DNA of 64,000 bases, from the sequence record PP274704.1; one strand, given 5' to 3'. A model generated the notes under the pieces. It ran no database searches. It saw only the letters and a list, made by a program, of their open reading frames with translations, and was not told where the DNA came from. This DNA is from Escherichia phage ECp13. The translations under genes and the position numbers were made by a program. This document shows, in pieces, positions 2,419 through 43,094 of this stretch; the stretch's first letter is position 1; each line of letters opens with the position of its first letter.

Positions 2419-2727
2419 GTGAAACAGAACAAGATTGAAGTCTATGGAATTCCAGATGAAGTAGGTCGTTGTCCTGGATGTCAATCAGTTACAAAACTTC
2501 TAAAGGAGCTCAATGCTCCTTTTACTTTCTATAAAGTTCTTACAAATAATGGTAAGATTGAGTATGATCGTCCACTGATTGTATCTCTTGCTAAACGCGC
2601 TGGATTCACATCTCTTAACATTCGTTATCCAGTCATTTTCATCAATGATTCTAGACAAAAGAATATTAAACACTTCAAAGAAACTCTCATTTCACTTGGA
2701 TATGATAGAGATATCATAGAAGATTAA
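2419..2727 (+). CDS. nrdH: Glutaredoxin-like protein NrdH (GTG start)
   Basis: 102 aa with CPGC redox motif; position next to nrdG. Confidence 0.7.
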   Translation: MKQNKIEVYGIPDEVGRCPGCQSVTKLLKELNAPFTFYKVLTNNGKIEYDRPLIVSLAKRAGFTSLNIRYPVIFINDSRQKNIKHFKETLISLGYDRDIIED

Positions 2728-2729
2728 GA

Positions 2730-2752
2730 CGGGCCCTCTGGGCCTTTCTTTC
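2730..2752 (+). terminator. Hairpin GGCCC-tct-GGGCC followed by T-rich tract
   Basis: Inverted repeat immediately after nrdH stop. Confidence 0.45.
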
Positions 2753-2780
2753 TCACATTCTGTATATTACCATTCTAAGC

Positions 2781-2819
2781 TATCGTTCCCTTCTTATCGT
2801 TCCCTTCTTATCGTTCCCT
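2781..2819. repeat. Tandem direct repeat, 14-nt unit TATCGTTCCCTTCT x ~2.8
   Basis: Read directly: tatcgttcccttct tatcgttcccttct tatcgttccct. Confidence 0.9.
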
Positions 2820-2832
2820 AAAATAATTTTCA

Positions 2833-2872
2833 CAAAGTTGTTTACAACAAGTTCAAACTGTGGTATTATTAA
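2833..2872 (+). promoter_or_regulatory. T4-type early promoter (GTTTAC -35, 18 nt, TATTAT -10)
   Basis: aaagttGTTTACaacaagttcaaactgtggTATTAT. Confidence 0.55.
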
Positions 2873-2899
2873 CATATGAATTGCCTTTGAGGATTTGAT

Positions 2900-13057: not shown

Positions 13058-13621
13058 ATGAGCTTATTTGAAGATGATATTCAATTAAACGAGCATCAAG
13101 TTGCTTGGTATTCAAAAGATTGGACAGCTGTCCAATCTGCTGCTGATTCTTTTAAGGAAAAAGCTGAAAATGAATTTTTTGAAATAATTGGAGCTATTAA
13201 TAATAAAACTAAATGCTCTATTGCTCAAAAAGATTATTCAAAATACATGGTTGAGAATGCATTATCACAATTTCCTGAATGCATGCCAGCTGTATATGCT
13301 ATGAATTTAATTGGATCAGGTTTAAGCGATGAAGCCCATTTTAATTATCTGATGGCTGCTGTTCCTCGTGGTAAAAGATATAGTAAATGGGCAAAACTGG
13401 TTGAAGATTCTACCGAAGTATTGATTATTAAGTTACTTGCTAAGCGGTATCAAGTTAATACAAATGATGCAATTAACTATAAATCAATTCTTACTAAAAA
13501 TGGAAAACTACCTTTAGTATTAAAAGAACTAAAAGGTTTAGTCACGGATGATTTTTTGAAAGAAGTGACTAAGAACGTAAAAGAACAGAAACAACTCAAA
13601 AAACTAGCATTGGAATGGTAA
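13058..13621 (+). CDS. 62: Clamp loader small subunit gp62
   Basis: 187 aa immediately after gp44. Confidence 0.85.
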
Positions 13622-24771: not shown

Positions 24772-24968
24772 ATTAACCCAACTAAAGCAAATGCTAAATC
24801 TACGAATGTATCAAGAGTAATTACTGGAATATTAACGCCATGAGCAATAGCAATTGGCGATAAAACAAAATTCCAGAGTAAAATTCCTACCATAGCAGAA
24901 ATAGTAAAAGCTATACGTTTTTTATTACCTTTTATGGCATTAACAAGTGCCATTAATTTTTGTACCAT
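24768..24968 (-). CDS. Hypothetical two-helix membrane protein (66 aa) on the opposite strand
   Basis: Minus-strand ATG preceded by AAGGAGG; convergent with gene 61. Confidence 0.5.
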   Translation of the reverse strand: MVQKLMALVNAIKGNKKRIAFTISAMVGILLWNFVLSPIAIAHGVNIPVITLDTFVDLAFALVGLI

Positions 24969-24977
24969 ATGTCCTCC

Positions 24978-25006
24978 TTATTGCTTTATATATTTATTGT
25001 ATAATT
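24978..25006 (+). promoter_or_regulatory. Middle promoter: MotA box TGCTTTA, 11 nt, TATAAT
   Basis: ttaTTGCTTTAtatatttattgTATAAT upstream of gene 56. Confidence 0.5.
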
Positions 25007-25039
25007 AATCTACTAACCCATGAATTGAAAGGAAAAATA

Positions 25040-25557
25040 ATGGCTTACTTTAATGAATGTAGTCAACTGATTGAAGGCGCTGATAAAGCTCAAAATGAAT
25101 ACTGGGATATTCTCGGCGATGAAAAAGACCCGCTGCAGGTTATGCTTGATATGCAGAAATCTCTGCAGGTTCGTTTAGCTAAAGATAAACCTGAATATAA
25201 CCGTCATCCTGATGATTTGGCTACTGCAGGTGAAGTTGTTGATTGGCTGCGTAATCAGAAAGATTATATTGATGATGAATTCCGCGAACTTCTGACTTCT
25301 CTTGGTGGTATGAGCAATGGCGAAAAAGATGCATCTGCTGTATGGAAGCTTGGAAGTCGCAACACGGTGAACGTCGTGAAACTCTGATTACTGACTTATC
25401 TCCACAAGACCAGTTGGAAATTAAATTCGAAATGATTGATATTCTTCATTTCGTTCTGAACATGTTCCAAGGTCTCGGTCTTACGGCTGAAGAAATCTTT
25501 AAACTTTATTATCTGAAAAATGCTGAAAACTTCGCTCGTCAAGACCGAGGTTATTAA
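25040..25557 (+). pseudogene. 56: dCTPase/dUTPase gp56, interrupted by apparent 1-nt deletion near 25346-25350
   Basis: Frame A ends ...ASAVWK then runs to a stop at 25387; frame B resumes (E)AWKSQ...ARQDRGY; the two pieces sum to ~172 aa, the intact length. Confidence 0.6.
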
Positions 25558-31801: not shown

Positions 31802-32062
31802 ATGATTAACATCAATTCAAAATATTTAAATCGTCTAATAGATGGTATAAAGAAGCACACTGATAAGCAAGATAACCTCAGTGTTATGGTAACAGGAGCT
31901 GAGCTCCTTTATAAGCTTAATCTTATAAGTGATACTATACTAGCAATTAAACGAATTGAAAAACAATCATATCACAGTAATACAGACACGGTAATTACGC
32001 TAGATGAAAGTGTCTGTAAGCTGTTGATTAAATTTGAGGAAGCTATTCGTGGAAATAACTAA
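31802..32062 (+). CDS. Hypothetical protein (86 aa), member 1 of a tandem paralog trio
   Basis: ORF track; C-terminal region resembles the next two ORFs. Confidence 0.5.
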   Translation: MININSKYLNRLIDGIKKHTDKQDNLSVMVTGAELLYKLNLISDTILAIKRIEKQSYHSNTDTVITLDESVCKLLIKFEEAIRGNN

Positions 32063-32294
32063 AGACCAGTTTTATCTGCTTCAAGATAAAGTGAGCGAAA
32101 TTTATGAAATAGCTTATAGTAAAAATCGTACAAATGTAAAAATTGAATCAGGCAAGTTAATGCTTCAATTGGAAGAAATTGAACGAGATTTGATTGCGTT
32201 AGAATTCTTTTGCGGTGAAGTGAAAACTGTTACAATCAGTGATTATGTTTTAGGTGAAATTAGCCATCTTTATAAGGCGGTTATTAATGATTGA
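32034..32294 (+). CDS. Hypothetical protein, paralog 2 (start uncertain: TTG 32034 or GTG 32049)
   Basis: ORF track; ...LQLEEIERDLIALEFF...VTISDYVLGEISHLYKAV. Confidence 0.4.
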   Translation: MRKLFVEITKDQFYLLQDKVSEIYEIAYSKNRTNVKIESGKLMLQLEEIERDLIALEFFCGEVKTVTISDYVLGEISHLYKAVIND

Positions 32295-32529
32295 ATTAAG
32301 TTTGCATCAGTTTAAGTCTCTTATGGCAAATGTTAAAGCTGTCATTCAAGAAAATTCAGGACCTGATAATGTTACTATTCGCGAAAAAGCTTTAAAGATA
32401 GTATACAGTCTTGAAGAGATACAAAAAGATATTGAATCTATGGCAAAATTTATTGATGAGCCCATTAATAAAGTTTATATCCAAGATTATACTGTAGGTC
32501 AAATTCGCGATTTAGCGAGGAAAATTTAA
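32287..32529 (+). CDS. Hypothetical protein, paralog 3 (80 aa from ATG 32287; ORF track starts 32254)
   Basis: ...SLEEIQKDIESMAKF...VYIQDYTVGQIRDLARKI. Confidence 0.4.
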   Translation: MIELSLHQFKSLMANVKAVIQENSGPDNVTIREKALKIVYSLEEIQKDIESMAKFIDEPINKVYIQDYTVGQIRDLARKI

Positions 32530-33212
32530 TGTTTGATTTTATTATAGATTTTGAAACAATGGGAAGCGGTGAAAAGGCAGCTGTTATTGATTTGGCTGTT
32601 ATTGCCTTTGACCCTAATCCAGAAGTAGTTGAAACATTTGATGAATTAGTTTCACGCGGCATTAAAATCAAGTTTGATTTAAAAAGCCAAAAAGGACATC
32701 GTCTTTTTACTAAAAGCACTATCGAATGGTGGAAAAATCAATCTCCTGAAGCTCGAAAAAATATTGCACCATCAGATGAAGATGTAAGCACTATCGATGG
32801 TATTGCAAAATTTAATGATTACATCAATGCGCATAATATCGATCCTTGGAAATCTCAAGGCTGGTGCCGTGGAATGTCGTTTGATTTTCCAATTTTAGTT
32901 GATCTCATTCGTGATATTCAGCGTCTTAACGGCGTTTCCGAGAATGAGCTTGATACGTTTAAGTTAGAACCTTGTAAATTCTGGAATCAACGCGATATTC
33001 GCACCAGAATTGAAGCACTTCTGCTTGTTCGTGATATGACCACATGTCCTCTTCCAAAGGGAACTTTAGACGGGTTCGTTGCGCATGATTCTATTCATGA
33101 CTGTGCGAAAGACATCCTGATGATGAAGTATGCTTTGCGATATGCTATGGGTCTTGAAGATGCTCCGTCAGAGGAAGAGTGCGATCCTCTATCTCTTCCA
33201 ACAAAACGATAA
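32529..33212 (+). CDS. dexA: Exonuclease A DexA (DEDD family)
   Basis: 227 aa; N-terminal DFETMG motif. Confidence 0.85.
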   Translation: MFDFIIDFETMGSGEKAAVIDLAVIAFDPNPEVVETFDELVSRGIKIKFDLKSQKGHRLFTKSTIEWWKNQSPEARKNIAPSDEDVSTIDGIAKFNDYINAHNIDPWKSQGWCRGMSFDFPILVDLIRDIQRLNGVSENELDTFKLEPCKFWNQRDIRTRIEALLLVRDMTTCPLPKGTLDGFVAHDSIHDCAKDILMMKYALRYAMGLEDAPSEEECDPLSLPTKR

Positions 33213-33252
33213 AAAGTTGTTTACTTCCTCGGTTAGTTGTGGTATTATAACA
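33210..33252 (+). promoter_or_regulatory. Early promoter (GTTTAC plus TATTAT)
   Basis: aaaagttGTTTACttcctcggttagttgtggTATTATaac. Confidence 0.5.
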
Positions 33253-33275
33253 CCATAGCTACTGAGGATAATAAA

Positions 33276-33785
33276 ATGAAAATTTATCGTGTTGAATCAT
33301 CGTTTAGTATTCTTGATTATGAAGATGCTATAACAATACGTCGAAATCTTTGTGTTCAAATAACGCCGTACAGGAGTATAATAGATTCATGGAGCGAAGA
33401 GTGGCTATTACGTGTAGGTTATAGTAGACCTAATTTTATGCATCATAGCGATAATAATAAAAGAATTCCTCTTCCGCGCGAAGACAAATTATTAGTTAAA
33501 AATGCTAATATAGCAATTAATACTAAATTTGAGAAAGAGGAATATGTAGGCGTAGATCACTATATTCCAGGATGGTTTATAGCTCTTTATCATTTTGCTT
33601 TCGCTAGTGAATATGATATGATGAGATGGTTCACACGAGAAGAGCGTGAAGAATTATCTTCTAAAGGATTTTATCTCGCTGTATACGAAGTTCCTGAAGA
33701 TGAAGTTATCATTGGCGGACACCAAGTAATGTTCCGTAAATCCCATGCTGAACTTGTAGATTTTATTGAAATGAGACAATTATGA
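33276..33785 (+). CDS. Hypothetical protein (169 aa)
   Basis: ATG 33276 with GAGGATAA SD; track start 33237 is TTG inside the promoter -10. Confidence 0.55.
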   Translation: MKIYRVESSFSILDYEDAITIRRNLCVQITPYRSIIDSWSEEWLLRVGYSRPNFMHHSDNNKRIPLPREDKLLVKNANIAINTKFEKEEYVGVDHYIPGWFIALYHFAFASEYDMMRWFTREEREELSSKGFYLAVYEVPEDEVIIGGHQVMFRKSHAELVDFIEMRQL

Positions 33786-34324
33786 AATTTAATTATAATC
33801 CTGAATACACCCCAAATCCTATAGATAAAATATTTGATATGGATACAGCAAGCATGTACGGCACTCTTGTTAAACCATTAGAAATTAAGGAAACCTTTAT
33901 GACTGCTCGGATCATCGAAATTGGCAAAACCTACAAACTGGTTGAAACTGAAATTAAAACTACTGAACTAAGTTTGGGTTATAAAGCATTGACCAGTGTT
34001 TTGGGTGAAGGCGAGTTTGTGGTTAAAAGTTTTTCAAAAAGTAATTGGCATGATAAGAATAAAGCTTACGTGATTCGAGCACAACGCTTAGATAATGATG
34101 AAGTAATTAAAACTATAGTCTTTGAAGTAGAGCTTATCCTCTTCCAAGAATGCGATCCTACTGACCTTCTAACTCGTGCTGTAGCTATCAAGACTCCATT
34201 TGTTTCGGTCTATGGTTGGGTAACAGACCAGTGGATTGAAGATGGTGTTGAACTTCTGAACGTGGTTCATGCAGGCGATTTTAGCGTAGTACCTCGTAGT
34301 GCAGTGGTAGCTATTTTGAATTAA
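33782..34324 (+). CDS. Hypothetical protein (180 aa), paralog of 34401..34898
   Basis: C-termini align: VTDQWIEDGVELLNVVHAGDFSVVP vs ITDQWVEDGVKLYNAVFLGTYKVIP. Confidence 0.55.
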   Translation: MKFNYNPEYTPNPIDKIFDMDTASMYGTLVKPLEIKETFMTARIIEIGKTYKLVETEIKTTELSLGYKALTSVLGEGEFVVKSFSKSNWHDKNKAYVIRAQRLDNDEVIKTIVFEVELILFQECDPTDLLTRAVAIKTPFVSVYGWVTDQWIEDGVELLNVVHAGDFSVVPRSAVVAILN

Positions 34325-36750: not shown

Positions 36751-36800
36751 CTTTATGATTACCGGAGTATAATATTCCCGAAACCAAACGAGGATAAGTG

Positions 36801-38618
36801 ATGATTAAGAATGAAATTAAAATTCTGAGCGATATTGAACATATCAAAAAGCGTAGCGGCATGTACATTGGCTCTTCCGCTAATGAAATGCATGAGCGCT
36901 TTCTGTTTGGTAAATGGGAAAGTGTTCAGTATGTACCTGGTCTTGTTAAGCTTATTGATGAAATTATCGATAACTCAGTAGATGAAGGTATTCGTACTAA
37001 GTTTAAATTCGCGAATAAAATTAATGTTACTATCAAAAACAATCAAGTAACAGTTGAAGATAACGGTCGTGGTATTCCACAAGCGATGGTTAAAACACCT
37101 ACTGGTGAAGAAATTCCCGGTCCTGTTGCCGCCTGGACTATTCCAAAAGCAGGTGGTAACTTCGGTGATGATAAAGAACGTGTCACTGGCGGTATGAACG
37201 GTGTTGGTTCTAGTTTAACTAACATTTTTTCTGTGATGTTTGTCGGTGAAACTGGCGACGGTCAAAATAATATTGTAGTTCGTTGTTCAAATGGCATGGA
37301 AAATAAATCATGGGAAGATATTCCCGGAAAATGGAAAGGAACTCGTGTTACTTTCATTCCTGATTTTATGTCATTTGAAACTAATGAGCTGTCTCAAGTT
37401 TATCTTGACATTACACTGGATCGTCTCCAGACACTTGCAGTAGTTTATCCTGATATTCAATTTACCTTTAATGGTAAAAAGGTTCAGGGTAATTTTAAGA
37501 AATATGCACGCCAATATGATGAGCATGCTATTGTTCAAGAACAAGAAAATTGTTCTATTGCGGTTGGTCGTTCACCAGATGGTTTTCGTCAATTAACATA
37601 CGTCAATAACATTCATACTAAGAATGGTGGCCATCACATTGACTGCGTTATGGATGATATTTGTGAAGACCTTATTCCACAAATCAAACGTAAGTTCAAA
37701 ATTGATGTAACTAAAGCACGTGTTAAAGAATGTTTGACTATCGTTATGTTTGTTCGTGATATGAAAAACATGCGATTTGATTCTCAGACTAAAGAGCGTT
37801 TGACTTCTCCATTTGGTGAAATTCGTAGTCATATTCAGCTTGATGCTAAAAAGATTTCACGTGCTATTTTAAATAATGAAGCAATTTTAATGCCAATTAT
37901 TGAAGCTGCCTTGGCTCGTAAATTGGCAGCAGAAAAAGCAGCAGAAACTAAAGCAGCTAAAAAGGCTTCTAAAGCTAAGGTTCATAAACATATTAAAGCG
38001 AATCTTTGTGGTAAAGACGCTGACACTACTCTTTTCTTGACTGAGGGTGATTCTGCTATCGGATATCTTATTGATGTTCGTGATAAAGAACTTCATGGTG
38101 GTTATCCATTGCGTGGTAAAGTTCTCAACAGTTGGGGTATGTCATATGCTGATATGCTTAAAAACAAAGAACTGTTTGATATTTGTGCAATTACTGGATT
38201 AGTTCTTGGTGAAAAAGCTGAAAACTTGAATTATCATAATATTGCTATTATGACCGATGCTGACCATGATGGTCTAGGAAGCATTTATCCTTCTCTGCTC
38301 GGATTTTTTAGTAATTGGCCAGAACTGTTTGAACAAGGAAGAATTCGCTTCGTCAAAACTCCTGTAATCATCGCTCAGGTCGGTAAAAAACAAGAATGGT
38401 TTTATACAGTCGCTGAATATGAGAGTGCCAAAGATGCTCTACCTAAACATAGCATCCGTTATATTAAGGGACTTGGCTCTTTGGAAAAATCTGAATATCG
38501 TGAGATGATTCAAAACCCAGTATATGATGTTGTTAAACTTCCTGAGAACTGGAAAGAGCTTTTTGAAATGCTCATGGGAGATAATGCTGACCTTCGTAAA
38601 GAATGGATGAGCCAATAG
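36801..38618 (+). CDS. 39: Topoisomerase II large subunit gp39, uninterrupted full-length form (includes the part T4 encodes as gene 60)
   Basis: 605 aa; GHKL ATPase N-domain; TOPRIM LTEGDSAIGY; PLRGK. Confidence 0.9.
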   Translation: MIKNEIKILSDIEHIKKRSGMYIGSSANEMHERFLFGKWESVQYVPGLVKLIDEIIDNSVDEGIRTKFKFANKINVTIKNNQVTVEDNGRGIPQAMVKTPTGEEIPGPVAAWTIPKAGGNFGDDKERVTGGMNGVGSSLTNIFSVMFVGETGDGQNNIVVRCSNGMENKSWEDIPGKWKGTRVTFIPDFMSFETNELSQVYLDITLDRLQTLAVVYPDIQFTFNGKKVQGNFKKYARQYDEHAIVQEQENCSIAVGRSPDGFRQLTYVNNIHTKNGGHHIDCVMDDICEDLIPQIKRKFKIDVTKARVKECLTIVMFVRDMKNMRFDSQTKERLTSPFGEIRSHIQLDAKKISRAILNNEAILMPIIEAALARKLAAEKAAETKAAKKASKAKVHKHIKANLCGKDADTTLFLTEGDSAIGYLIDVRDKELHGGYPLRGKVLNSWGMSYADMLKNKELFDICAITGLVLGEKAENLNYHNIAIMTDADHDGLGSIYPSLLGFFSNWPELFEQGRIRFVKTPVIIAQVGKKQEWFYTVAEYESAKDALPKHSIRYIKGLGSLEKSEYREMIQNPVYDVVKLPENWKELFEMLMGDNADLRKEWMSQ

Positions 38619-38672: not shown

Positions 38673-38876
38673 ATGAAATCATATAGAGTAAATTTAGAAC
38701 TTTTTGATAAAGCAGTTCATCGAGAATATAGAATCATTCAACGCTTTTTCGATATGGGAGAAGCTGAAGAGTTTAAAAACCGCTTTAAGGATATTAGAGA
38801 TAAAATTCAATCCGACACCGCAACTAAAGATGAACTACTAGAAGTTGCTGAAGTTATTAAACGCAATATGAATTAA
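38673..38876 (+). CDS. Hypothetical protein (67 aa), rIIA.1 position
   Basis: ORF track; GAGGATATTG SD. Confidence 0.5.
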
Positions 38877-38886
38877 TGAGGAAATT

Positions 38887-41063
38887 ATGATTATCACCAC
38901 TGAAAAAGAAACAATTCTTGGTAATGGTTCTAAATCAAAAGCATTTAGCATCACAGCATCTCCTAAAGTATTCAAAATTCTGTCATCTGATTTGTATACA
39001 AACAAGATTCGCGCAGTAGTCCGTGAATTGATTACCAACATGATTGATGCCCATGCTCTCAATGGAAATCCTGAAAAATTTATCATTCAAGTTCCAGGAC
39101 GATTAGATCCGCGATTTGTTTGTCGAGATTTTGGTCCAGGTATGAGCGATTTTGATATTCAAGGTGATGATAATTCTCCTGGGTTGTATAATTCATACTT
39201 TAGTTCATCTAAGGCTGAATCTAACGATTTCATTGGTGGATTTGGTTTAGGTTCTAAATCTCCGTTTAGTTATACTGATACATTTAGTATTACTTCATAT
39301 CATAAAGGCGAAATTCGTGGTTATGTAGCTTACATGGATGGCGATGGTCCACAAATTAAACCTACATTTGTAAAAGAAATGGGTCCAGATGATAAAACTG
39401 GTATTGAAATCGTAGTTCCAGTTGAAGAAAAAGACTTTAGAAACTTTGCTTATGAAGTTTCTTATATCATGCGACCATTCAAAGATTTAGCTATCATTAA
39501 TGGTCTTGACCGCGAAATTGATTATTTTCCGGATTTTGATGACTATTACGGCGTAAATCCAGAAAGATACTGGCCAGATCGTGGTGGATTGTATGCTATC
39601 TATGGCGGTATTGTTTATCCTATCGATGGTGTTATTAGAGACCGTAACTGGTTAAGCATCCGTAATGAAGTGAATTACATTAAGTTTCCAATGGGTTCAC
39701 TTGATATTGCTCCATCACGCGAAGCTCTTTCACTAGATGATCGTACTCGTAAAAATATTATTGAGCGTGTTAAAGAGCTTAGTGAGAAGGCATTCAATGA
39801 AGATGTAAAACGATTTAAAGAATCTACATCTCCTCGTCATACATACCGTGAATTGATGAAGATGGGATATTCTGCTCGAGATTATATGATTAGTAATTCA
39901 GTCAAATTTACGACTAAAAATCTGTCATATAAGAAGATGCAAAGCATGTTTGAACCAGATAGTAAGCTATGCAATGCAGGAGTTGTGTATGAAGTAAATC
40001 TTGACCCTCGACTGAAACGCATTAAGCAAAGTCATGAAACTTCAGCCGTTGCATCAAGTTATCGTCTGTTCGGTATTAATACAACAAAAATTAATATCGT
40101 TATTGATAATATTAAAAATCGCGTTAATATTGTCCGTGGATTAGCGCATGCGTTAGATGATAAAGAATTTAATAACACTTTAAATATTCATCACAACGAG
40201 CGTCTTCTGTTTATTAATCCGGAAGTAGAATCGCAGATTGATTTACTCCCTGATATTATGGCAATGTTTGAAAGTGATGAAGTTAACTTCATCACTTGTC
40301 AGAAATTGAAGCTTTAGTTAAAAGTTATATTCCGAAGGCAGTTAAAAGTAAAGCTCCTCGTCCTAAAGCTGCTACTGCGTTTAAGTTTGAAATTAAAGAC
40401 GGGCGCTGGGAAAAAGAGGAACTGTTTACACTTACGTCAGAAGCAGATGAAATTACTGGTTATGTAGCATACATGCATCGTTCTGATATTTTCTCTATGG
40501 ATGGTACTACATCGCTCTGTAATCCGTCTACGAGTATTTTGACTCGTATGGCTAATCTTATTGGCATTAATGAATTTTATGTTATTCGTCCACTTTTGCA
40601 GAAAAAGGTAAAAGAACTTGGTCAGTGCCAATGTATTTTTGAAACTCTACGTGATTTATATGTAGATGCTTTTGATGATGTAGATTATGATAAGTATGTA
40701 GGTTATTCAAGTTCAGCTAAACGATATATTGATAAAATTATCAAGTATCCTGAGTTAGATTTTATGATGAAGTACTTCAGTGTAGATGAAGTTTCCGAAG
40801 AATATACACGACTCGCTAATATGGTTAGTTCATTACAGGGTGTATATTTCAACTGTGGAAAAGATACCATCGGTCATGACATCTGGACAGTAACTAATCT
40901 TTTTGATGTATTATCAAACAATGCTTCAAAAAACAGTGATAAAATGGTTACTGAGTTTACTAAGAAATTCCGTATTGTTTCCGACTTCATCGGTTATCGC
41001 AACTCTTTAAGTGATGATGAAGTTTCCCAAATCGCTAAAACTATGAAGGCCCTTGCGGCCTAA
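38887..41063 (+). pseudogene. rIIA: rIIA, split by apparent 1-nt deletion between 40284 and 40296
   Basis: ORF 38887..40317 (476 aa) plus ORF 40296..41063 (255 aa) together match remembered 725 aa rIIA; frame changes at ...FESDEV / [10 protein letters not shown]. Confidence 0.7.
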
Positions 41064-41074
41064 TAAGGAAAATT

Positions 41075-42013
41075 ATGTACAATATTAAATGCCTGACCAA
41101 AAACGAACAATCTGAAATTGTCAAACTGTATTCAAGTGGTAATTACACCCAACAGGAATTGGCTGATTGGCAAGGTGTATCGGTGGACACAATCCGTCGT
41201 GTTTTGAAAAATGCTGAAGAAGCTGAGCGCTCTAAAGTTACTATTAGTGGTGATATTACAGTTAAAGTTAATAGCGATGCAGTTATTGCTCCAGTTGCTA
41301 AATCTGACATTATTTGGAATGCATCTAAAAAATTCATTTCAATTACTGTTGACGGTGTAACTTATAACGCAACTCCTAATACTCATTCAAACTTCCAGGA
41401 AATTCTTAATCTGCTTGTTGCAGATAAATTGGAAGAAGCGGCACAAAAAATTAATGTTCGACGCGCTGTTGAAAAATATATTTCCGGTGATGTTCGAATT
41501 GAAGGTGGAAGCTTGTTCTATCAAAATATTGAATTGCGATCTGGTTTAGTTGATCGTATTCTCGATTCGATGGAAAAAGGCGAAAACTTTGAATTTTATT
41601 TTCCGTTCTTGGAAAATCTGTTGGAAAACCCGAGCCAAAAAGCGGTATCTCGACTCTTTGATTTCTTGGTAGCAAACGATATTGAAATCACAGAAGATGG
41701 TTACTTCTATGCTTGGAAAGTAGTTCGCAGTAATTACTTTGATTGTCATTCAAATACTTTTGATAACAGTCCTGGTAAAGTAGTTAAAATGCCACGTACT
41801 CGTGTGAATGACGATGATACACAAACTTGTTCTCGTGGTCTGCATGTGTGTTCTAAATCTTATATTCGTCACTTTGGCAGTTCAACCAGCCGAGTTGTAA
41901 AAGTTAAAGTACATCCTCGCGATGTAGTATCAATTCCGATTGATTACAATGATGCTAAAATGCGTACCTGCCAATACGAAGTAGTTGAAGACGTTACTGA
42001 ACAATTTAAATAA
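41075..42013 (+). CDS. rIIB: rIIB
   Basis: 312 aa; MYNIKCLTKNEQSEIVKLYSSGNYTQQELADWQGVS matches remembered T4 rIIB. Confidence 0.8.
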   Translation: MYNIKCLTKNEQSEIVKLYSSGNYTQQELADWQGVSVDTIRRVLKNAEEAERSKVTISGDITVKVNSDAVIAPVAKSDIIWNASKKFISITVDGVTYNATPNTHSNFQEILNLLVADKLEEAAQKINVRRAVEKYISGDVRIEGGSLFYQNIELRSGLVDRILDSMEKGENFEFYFPFLENLLENPSQKAVSRLFDFLVANDIEITEDGYFYAWKVVRSNYFDCHSNTFDNSPGKVVKMPRTRVNDDDTQTCSRGLHVCSKSYIRHFGSSTSRVVKVKVHPRDVVSIPIDYNDAKMRTCQYEVVEDVTEQFK

Positions 42014-42274: not shown

Positions 42275-42604
42275 ATGATTTATTGTATGAATATCGGTGA
42301 TTCCGACATAAAAGAGATTAAACTGCACGGAAATCATCATGCTAATATTGTGTACTGCAATAAATTTGAGTTTGGTCACGAAAAACTTGGGTTTCTTTAC
42401 TGCAATGATATTATAGTCATGGATAAAAAGGAACTCGATGAACTTGACCATGAGTCTTTAGATGAAAATGACCGAATTTATTACGGCACTCTTAAAGTAT
42501 ATAACGCTTATCTCAGCGGTAAAAAGGAAAGTCTAAATGCAGAAAACGAATCCGGGTTTACAGAGACTATTTCAGATTCCGACATTTACCCTATCGAACA
42601 GTGA
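42275..42604 (+). CDS. Hypothetical protein (109 aa); 3' end overlaps denB by 68 nt
   Basis: ORF track; AAGGAAAAA SD. Confidence 0.45.
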   Translation: MIYCMNIGDSDIKEIKLHGNHHANIVYCNKFEFGHEKLGFLYCNDIIVMDKKELDELDHESLDENDRIYYGTLKVYNAYLSGKKESLNAENESGFTETISDSDIYPIEQ

Positions 42605-43094
42605 CTTGACTAGTGAAATGAAGGTCAAAATTGCTGATACAGCAAGATACTCTTTAAAACAAAATCCAAATCAGGATAAAGCAGAAGTTATTGAAAGATG
42701 TCGTATCGCGGTGTACGCAGAATTTTTTGTAGCAGATTGGCTAAGTGGGTATGTTAACAAAGGCCAAGAAGATGTTAATGACCCGTATACATATGCATGG
42801 GATGTATTGGCGCATCCAAGATACTGCGGGCTTCGTGTAGAAGTTAAGACACATCAAACTGACTCACGTTGGATTTCTGTAACAACAGGATGCAGCGGAG
42901 AGTATCCATATGGTTCTGGAATAAATCTAGGGCCCATTCTGAATCATCAGGTCGCTGACTGTATAATTATATTCAACACTAAAGAAATTCATCCAGGTGT
43001 CATCCAGTACACTCCGAAGTTCATTGGTGATAGAGAAGACCTTCGTAAGGTTGTAAGAAAAAGCAACTACAACGGATGGTATCTTTCCATTTAA
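42537..43094 (+). CDS. denB: Endonuclease IV DenB (probable, by length and position)
   Basis: 185 aa ATG ORF with AGGAAA SD between rIIB and ndd. Confidence 0.55.
   Translation: MQKTNPGLQRLFQIPTFTLSNSDLTSEMKVKIADTARYSLKQNPNQDKAEVIERCRIAVYAEFFVADWLSGYVNKGQEDVNDPYTYAWDVLAHPRYCGLRVEVKTHQTDSRWISVTTGCSGEYPYGSGINLGPILNHQVADCIIIFNTKEIHPGVIQYTPKFIGDREDLRKVVRKSNYNGWYLSI

Follow-up and report, generated by a model that had tools for sequence, protein, structure and literature searches.

Is rIIA truly broken in Escherichia phage ECp13, or is it broken only in the sequence record? In the 64,000-nt stretch of record PP274704.1 analysed here, referred to below as the window, this rapid-lysis gene runs in frame 1 from 38887 to 40317 and in another frame onward to 41063. 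An earlier note on this DNA had taken two open reading frames (ORFs), 38887..40317 and 40296..41063, to cover rIIA between them; both are present in the ORF list, with lengths of 476 and 255 aa, and the recomputed frames give the same text at the split as the translations it had quoted. The note proposed that a single-base deletion had split the gene, and that the phage was either a genuine rII frameshift mutant or the victim of an assembly indel.

The rII region and its relatives

The window is a segment of a Tequatrovirus (T4-like) genome, in an orientation opposite to that of the T4 map, and has the gene order nrdD ... 43 ... 41, 61, 56, soc ... dda ... 39, rIIA.1, rIIA, rIIB, denB ... 52 ... 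tail-fibre genes. Among public genomes it comes closest to the pSs-1-like phages of Shigella and Escherichia, namely Sfk20, KNP5, pSs-1 and ESh16, at 97-98.7% identity. The window resembles T2/T6-type phages in encoding the large topoisomerase subunit gp39 (36798..38618) in one ORF of about 605 codons, and the T4 gene 39/60 split, the mobA insertion and the translational bypass of gene 60 are all missing from the window. Features of the rII region are listed in Table 1. A change is called private here when it differs from the aligned relatives; for indels, four relatives were compared over nearly the whole window.

Table 1. Features at and around the rIIA lesion (window coordinates)
Feature	Position	Strand	Description
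rIIA.1	38673..38876	+	intact, 67 codons, upstream of rIIA; Pfam T4_RIIA1 in relatives
rIIA, 5' part	38887..40317	+	467 native codons, then 9 out-of-frame codons FITCQKLKL and TAG at 40315-40317
Perfect 26-bp palindrome AAGTGATGAAGTT|AACTTCATCACTT	40272..40297	.	centred on GTTAAC; from inverted-repeat search
Missing-A site	40287..40288	+	from alignment with relatives
Two private T>C	40293..40295	+	each makes a G.C pair where the quasi-palindrome has a G.T mismatch
rIIA, 3' part	40288..41063	+	codons 468-725, displaced by one base; listed ORF starts at TTG 40296
rIIB	41075..42013	+	intact, 312 codons, own start codon (ORF list)

Three private changes in rIIA

Alignment with ESh16, pSs-1, sb1, sb4, Sfk20, KNP5, ESh17 and T4 shows that a single A is absent between 40287 and 40288, where the window reads GTTAAC-TTCAT and the relatives read GTTAACATTCAT. 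This position lies within the interval 40284-40296 to which the earlier note had assigned the junction, and the comparison with T4 rIIA that it had suggested finds one A fewer in the window. Putting the A back yields one rIIA ORF of 725 codons with no other stop. The last native codon before the gap is that of Asn467 (AAC at 40285-40287), and a tblastn comparison with Sfk20 rIIA gives 100% identity over residues 9-472 in frame 1. The segment 40230-40345 is 117 nt long in every match listed and 116 nt long in the window, while rIIA as a whole spans 2178 nt in the best 40 of 499 matches, against 2177 nt in the window.

The missing base has close company. At 40293 and again at 40295 the window has C where the relatives have T, and these two T>C substitutions together convert TAT (Tyr470) to CAC (His), counted in the repaired frame; both, like the deletion, are private to the window. 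The single-base deletion of the earlier note is therefore an incomplete description: one A has indeed been lost, but the two adjoining substitutions had been overlooked and the lesion is a complex event of three changes. Each of the 422 phage records matching 40230-40345 differs from the window in at least three places, and none of them carries a subset of the three changes. Beyond 40293 and 40295, the 3' part of the gene shows no private change, and it has no internal stop once the frame is repaired.

A quasi-palindrome turned into a perfect palindrome

The unmutated (ancestral) form of the site is GTTAACATTCATTAT and the mutant-allele form is AACTTCATCAC. In the relatives, T4 included, the ancestral form can be written AAGTGATGAAGTTAAC-A-TTCATTATTT, an imperfect inverted repeat (AAGTGATGAAGTT AAC A TTCAT T A T TT) that has the self-complementary GTTAAC at its centre and whose arms make 10 Watson-Crick pairs with two G.T mismatches and one bulged A. 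This quasi-palindrome, at rIIA codons 463-471, is identical in T4 and the aligned pSs-1-like relatives (sb1 is off by one arm base); it was present in the ancestor before the changes seen in the window. The lost A, flanked by C and T, is the bulged base. Its loss removes the sole bulge, and the two substitutions correct the sole two mismatches. All three differences fall within 9 nt of one arm, the right one, and each raises its complementarity to the left arm, of which it is now the exact complement.

The product has arms of 13+13 nt that are 100% complementary and have no spacer, and it is the longest perfect palindrome in the 64-kb window; an arm of at least 13 nt appeared in 1 of 200 shuffles. 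The hairpin formed by the derived sequence in single-stranded DNA comes to -10.5 kcal/mol (z -5.3); the ancestral form reaches -2.0 kcal/mol, no different from shuffles. A second perfect palindrome, of 22 bp (AGATTGGACAGCTGTCCAATCT, 13117..13138), lies within gene 62 (clamp-loader small subunit); it is unchanged in Sfk20, pSs-1 and ESh16, and so is not the result of a recent event.

Taken as a pattern of bases, the rIIA footprint is a signature of quasi-palindrome template-switch mutagenesis. In such a switch the nascent strand briefly copies the other arm, and an imperfect repeat becomes perfect or more nearly so (PMC7202029).

One concerted event on one background

Did the three changes arise together? 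The most direct evidence comes from Logan contig ERR14760790_83654, which shares the haplotype of the window but has the parental allele: over 38687..41877, a stretch of 3.2 kb that takes in the whole of rIIA, it departs from the window at these three sites and nowhere else. The rIIB protein of the window points in the same direction: an exact-protein look-up returned six other contigs that encode it, all of them with an intact 725-aa rIIA next to it. The three changes thus arose together on one background. Chance would seldom arrange them in this way: when one deletion and two substitutions within 10 nt of each other were placed randomly in the window, a perfect arm of at least 13 nt resulted in 1 of 200,000 trials (~5e-6).

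Other sources of a clustered change were considered. A recombination patch from an unsampled relative is rejected, since the Logan contig differs at three sites only and ESh17/ESh18, which share the nearby 40194C and 40197C that look private against the four relatives, retain the ancestral quasi-palindrome. An ectopic donor elsewhere in the window is rejected as well, the only copy of at least 12 nt that spans the junction being the site's own left arm. Nor does the window display template-switch activity, or some general artefact, along its length: among 42 clusters of private substitutions, only the rIIA site has a local direct or inverted copy of at least 10 nt spanning the changes, and that copy is again its own left arm. 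Together, these observations make it very probable that the allele arose by templated copying.

Gene 56 and the quality of the record

Two private 1-bp indels, and no more, set the window apart from the four relatives, and each of them disrupts a gene: the one in rIIA and another in gene 56 (dCTPase/dUTPase; 25040..25557). In the latter, one C of a CC pair is lost at 25349 (GGAAGCCTTGG to GGAAGCTTGG), which splits the gene into ORFs 24947..25387 and 25342..25557. The best matches among 297 phage records differ from the window by the one-base gap alone, and the mutant junction was found in none of the IMG/VR or GTDB contigs. In T4, a gene 56 mutant requires inactivation of both denB and alc for stable DNA synthesis and plaques (PMC1635256). 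The denB gene is intact in the window (185 codons, 42537..43094), while alc lies outside it; with denB intact, a true gene 56 frameshift should be lethal, and the lesion is therefore probably an error of the record. A template switch is rejected as its source, because the deletion has no direct or inverted copy of at least 8 nt within 2 kb and creates only AAGCTT, which is not significant alone. In the absence of a nearby templating copy at gene 56, the two lesions share no obvious mechanism. The gene 56 frameshift is a curation problem in its own right and needs re-checking.

The rest of the window looks biologically clean. Its 353 private substitutions (270 synonymous, 80 non-synonymous) have the appearance of natural divergence, codon position 3 accounting for 268 of the 350 that lie in ORFs, and no other gene is split or has an internal stop within the window. 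Two private insertions are in frame: one of 15 bp (2779..2793, against three relatives), which lies in the small ORF 2709..2879 and resembles a partial local duplication, and one of 3 bp (33537..33539, against four relatives). A dense private patch, with 51 substitutions in the 2-kb bin 32000..34000 where 2-20 per bin is typical, and densest in 33820..33867, suggests a mosaic segment from an unsampled relative; an exact-protein look-up of ORF 33782..34324 found no match.

The comparison genomes likely hold indel errors too. Sfk20 (MW341595.1) has 1-bp length differences of its own in short homopolymers opposite 16829, 29401 and 43098, where the window agrees with pSs-1, and its record leaves gene 34 (proximal tail-fibre subunit, by T4 gene order) unannotated over about 4.6 kb. 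The rIIA loci of sb1 (PQ666539.1, 1501..3678; in-frame stops at codons 8, 279 and 282) and sb4 (PQ666542.1, 1501..3678; in-frame stops at codons 6 and 256) are both annotated as split, so that broken or low-quality rIIA sequence also occurs in other public Tequatrovirus records.

Error in the record or mutation in the phage?

The gene 56 deletion is an implausible indel in the same record and suggests that indel errors are present there. Could the rIIA gap be another, a random assembly or base-call indel that fell beside two unrelated natural T>C polymorphisms? The lost A stands alone between C and T, so the context is not a homopolymer, and the two substitutions linked to it are private: both are missing from all 422 matching records and from the contig that is otherwise identical over 3.2 kb. 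A combined search of IMG/VR for forms with and without the A found no instance of GTTAACATTCATCACTT, in which the A is present together with CAC. Such an accident would also have to yield the perfect 26-bp palindrome that only one simulated triple in 200,000 produced. A simple indel error as the sole cause is rejected on the grounds of the linked substitutions and the palindromic outcome, and the version that adds two polymorphisms is highly improbable. Of the two options in the earlier note, the frameshift and its effect on RIIA stand, while random indel error proves very unlikely. A complex lesion of three changes in one arm shifts the balance toward a real polymerase-templated mutation, and a real rII mutation is more likely than a random sequencing error.

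Templated copying could, on the other hand, have taken place outside the phage. Strand switching or fold-back copying in vitro or in a cloning host may have reached the consensus while the rIIA of the phage itself is intact; it could have come from end-repair polymerases acting once the DNA had been fragmented enzymatically or by sonication, from PCR, from whole-genome amplification of the hypermodified DNA, or from shotgun or PCR clones. Library preparation makes SNVs and indels at near-perfect palindromes through partial single-strand pairing, and the artefacts described by the PDSM model have the same footprint as the rIIA change, a natural quasi-palindrome perfected by SNVs and indels (PMC10908179). 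The suspicious frameshift in the essential gene 56 of the same window fits such an origin, since a probably artefactual indel there raises the prior for an artefact in rIIA. The rIIA allele is also unique to this record among the collections searched: it was found in none of the 422 phage records, IMG/VR, the JGI metagenomes, the GTDB genomes or the protein collection (the JGI metagenome and GTDB searches used the A-less window sequence only), and an exact-protein look-up of the truncated RIIA returned no match.

Several observations weigh on the other side. The documented artefacts are calls of low variant allele frequency in reads (PMC10908179), whereas the rIIA change is in an assembled consensus, a level that an artefact made in vitro would reach only through a clonal bottleneck; with PCR or clone-based sequencing, a templated artefact could become fixed in this way. 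Substitution quality is high elsewhere in the window, and the gene 56 lesion, lacking a templating copy, offers no obvious mechanism common to both. A technical origin is thus unlikely, if far from negligible, and the reading that we favour, with some reserve, is that the templated change occurred in the phage lineage in vivo and made a true rIIA mutant.

A template-switch model for the rIIA lesion

How could the switch have proceeded? Because only the right arm has changed, the mutant strand was probably the + (rIIA-sense) strand, made from left to right. Having just passed ...GAAGTTAAC, the nascent + strand would leave its template and re-pair through the 6 bp of GTTAAC with the same-sense strand, either in an intermolecular switch across the fork or in an equivalent hairpin-directed repair. 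A simple intramolecular fold-back is sterically unlikely, given the lack of a spacer and the position of the lost A beside the centre, and it cannot explain the removal of that A, which is why one of these two routes is assumed. Some 8-10 nt would then be copied from the left arm, giving TTCATCACTT (TTCATCAC[TT]), before the strand returned to its own template; the copied tract would end before 40298, since the window keeps the ancestral G at that position. To our knowledge, T4-type phages have no conventional mismatch repair, and for this reason the following round of replication would segregate a mutant from the heteroduplex. What the window contains is a right arm that is the exact reverse complement of the left one, with one A gone, a -1 frameshift after codon 467 and TAT replaced by CAC. 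The lack of decay downstream of the frameshift indicates that the event was most likely very recent, for example during isolation or propagation of the phage.

Comparison with known quasi-palindrome mutations

By the account given in PMC7202029, the quasi-palindrome template-switch model goes back to work on yeast CYC1 and T4 rIIB (Ripley 1982). As far as that account describes them, the T4 rIIB mutations (Ripley 1982; de Boer & Ripley 1984) are the closest parallel: they come from the same phage group and the same rII locus, and in them, too, an imperfect repeat was perfected by a simultaneous frameshift and substitutions in one arm. They differ in their place and in how they came to light, since the present site lies in rIIA codons 463-471 and was found in a pSs-1-like Tequatrovirus genome from a database, not in a mutant hunt. 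No published report of the rIIA palindrome site was found, the older literature being outside the reach of the search. The E. coli thyA and lacZ hotspots (Viswanathan et al. 2000; Dutra & Lovett 2006; Seier et al. 2011), as summarised in PMC7202029, are explained by the same proposed switch and return and likewise end in a more perfect palindrome. These hotspots are bacterial chromosomal reporters with spacers and a known leading/lagging bias, whereas the rIIA palindrome has no spacer and is known from sequence alone.

A different route to the same end has been described in rIIA itself. The A6-run hotspot or contingency locus (bioRxiv 10.1101/2025.10.21.683753) likewise inactivates the gene by frameshift, with the same predicted trade-off between rapid lysis and RexAB sensitivity. 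Changes in the A6 run occur by simple slippage and are readily reversible, whereas here a lone A was lost together with two substitutions and no reversion by the same route is available.

At the level of bases, the event has the features that define the T4 rIIB, thyA and lacZ quasi-palindrome cases. Both the gene and the mechanism were already known, and what the event adds is one more instance at a new site; a specialist would not be surprised by it, and its practical value is for the curation of this genome, gene 56 included.

Consequences for RIIA and for the phage

The lesion in rIIA is of a type that should inactivate the gene, a frameshift after codon 467 of 725. The predicted RIIA has 467 native and 9 foreign residues and lacks 258 C-terminal residues, which would reduce it from about 83 kDa to about 54 kDa. 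It would retain the N-terminal region that resembles a GHKL ATPase, a resemblance suggested by a weak Pfam match (HATPase_c_3 at residues 43-143, E 4e-5), just under the gathering score.

Could full RIIA be made nonetheless, by recoding (a -1 frameshift or a gene-60-like bypass), or could the two halves function as separate polypeptides? Translational bypassing is classically exemplified by T4 gene 60, the new hairpin folds stably, and a TTG opens the downstream ORF at 40296. Reading on into the 3' part would take a -1 ribosomal shift, however, and the only permissive interval, 40287-40314, contains neither an X XXY YYZ heptamer nor matched take-off and landing codons. The hairpin is upstream, not downstream, of any candidate site, and 40296 is not preceded by a Shine-Dalgarno sequence. 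More than 400 relatives all have an unbroken gene, and the parental allele is one event away, so there is no evident selection for a recoding device. Programmed frameshifting or bypass is rejected, given the lack of a motif in the overlap and of conservation of the split arrangement, and RIIA function kept up by recoding or by separate halves is barely credible.

The more plausible outcome is a loss of RIIA function, with rIIB presumably still expressed. Null mutants of rIIA lyse E. coli B rapidly and are excluded by RexAB (bioRxiv 10.1101/2025.10.21.683753; 10.1101/2023.05.28.542683), and the phage should behave as such a mutant, with rapid lysis on B-type hosts and RexAB exclusion by lambda lysogens. 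Reversion would need a +1 insertion within 40287-40314, an interval bounded by TAA at 40284-86 in the downstream frame and by TAG at 40315-17 in the upstream frame. If the lesion is real, the deposited phage is an rIIA-null strain, and in the timing of lysis, in plaque type and in host range on lysogens it would then not be representative of the wild type, which bears on those who use it for phage therapy or host-range work.

For annotation, the lesson is to look for local inverted repeats wherever substitutions cluster next to an indel, before the indel is put down to sequencing error. For the biology of template switching, the lesion offers a natural case of unusual clarity, in which three changes were made in concert and an independent sample supplies the exact parental allele, and it sits at rII, the locus where the model was first proposed. 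T4 shares the quasi-palindrome, which makes the site a candidate hotspot. That rIIA codons 463-471 are a recurrent natural hotspot which seeds T-even populations with rIIA nulls, and that the window holds its first captured natural product, is a long shot. Together with the A6 contingency tract, such a hotspot could maintain a standing reservoir of nulls for escape from hosts or defences by which the rII proteins are sensed or penalised.
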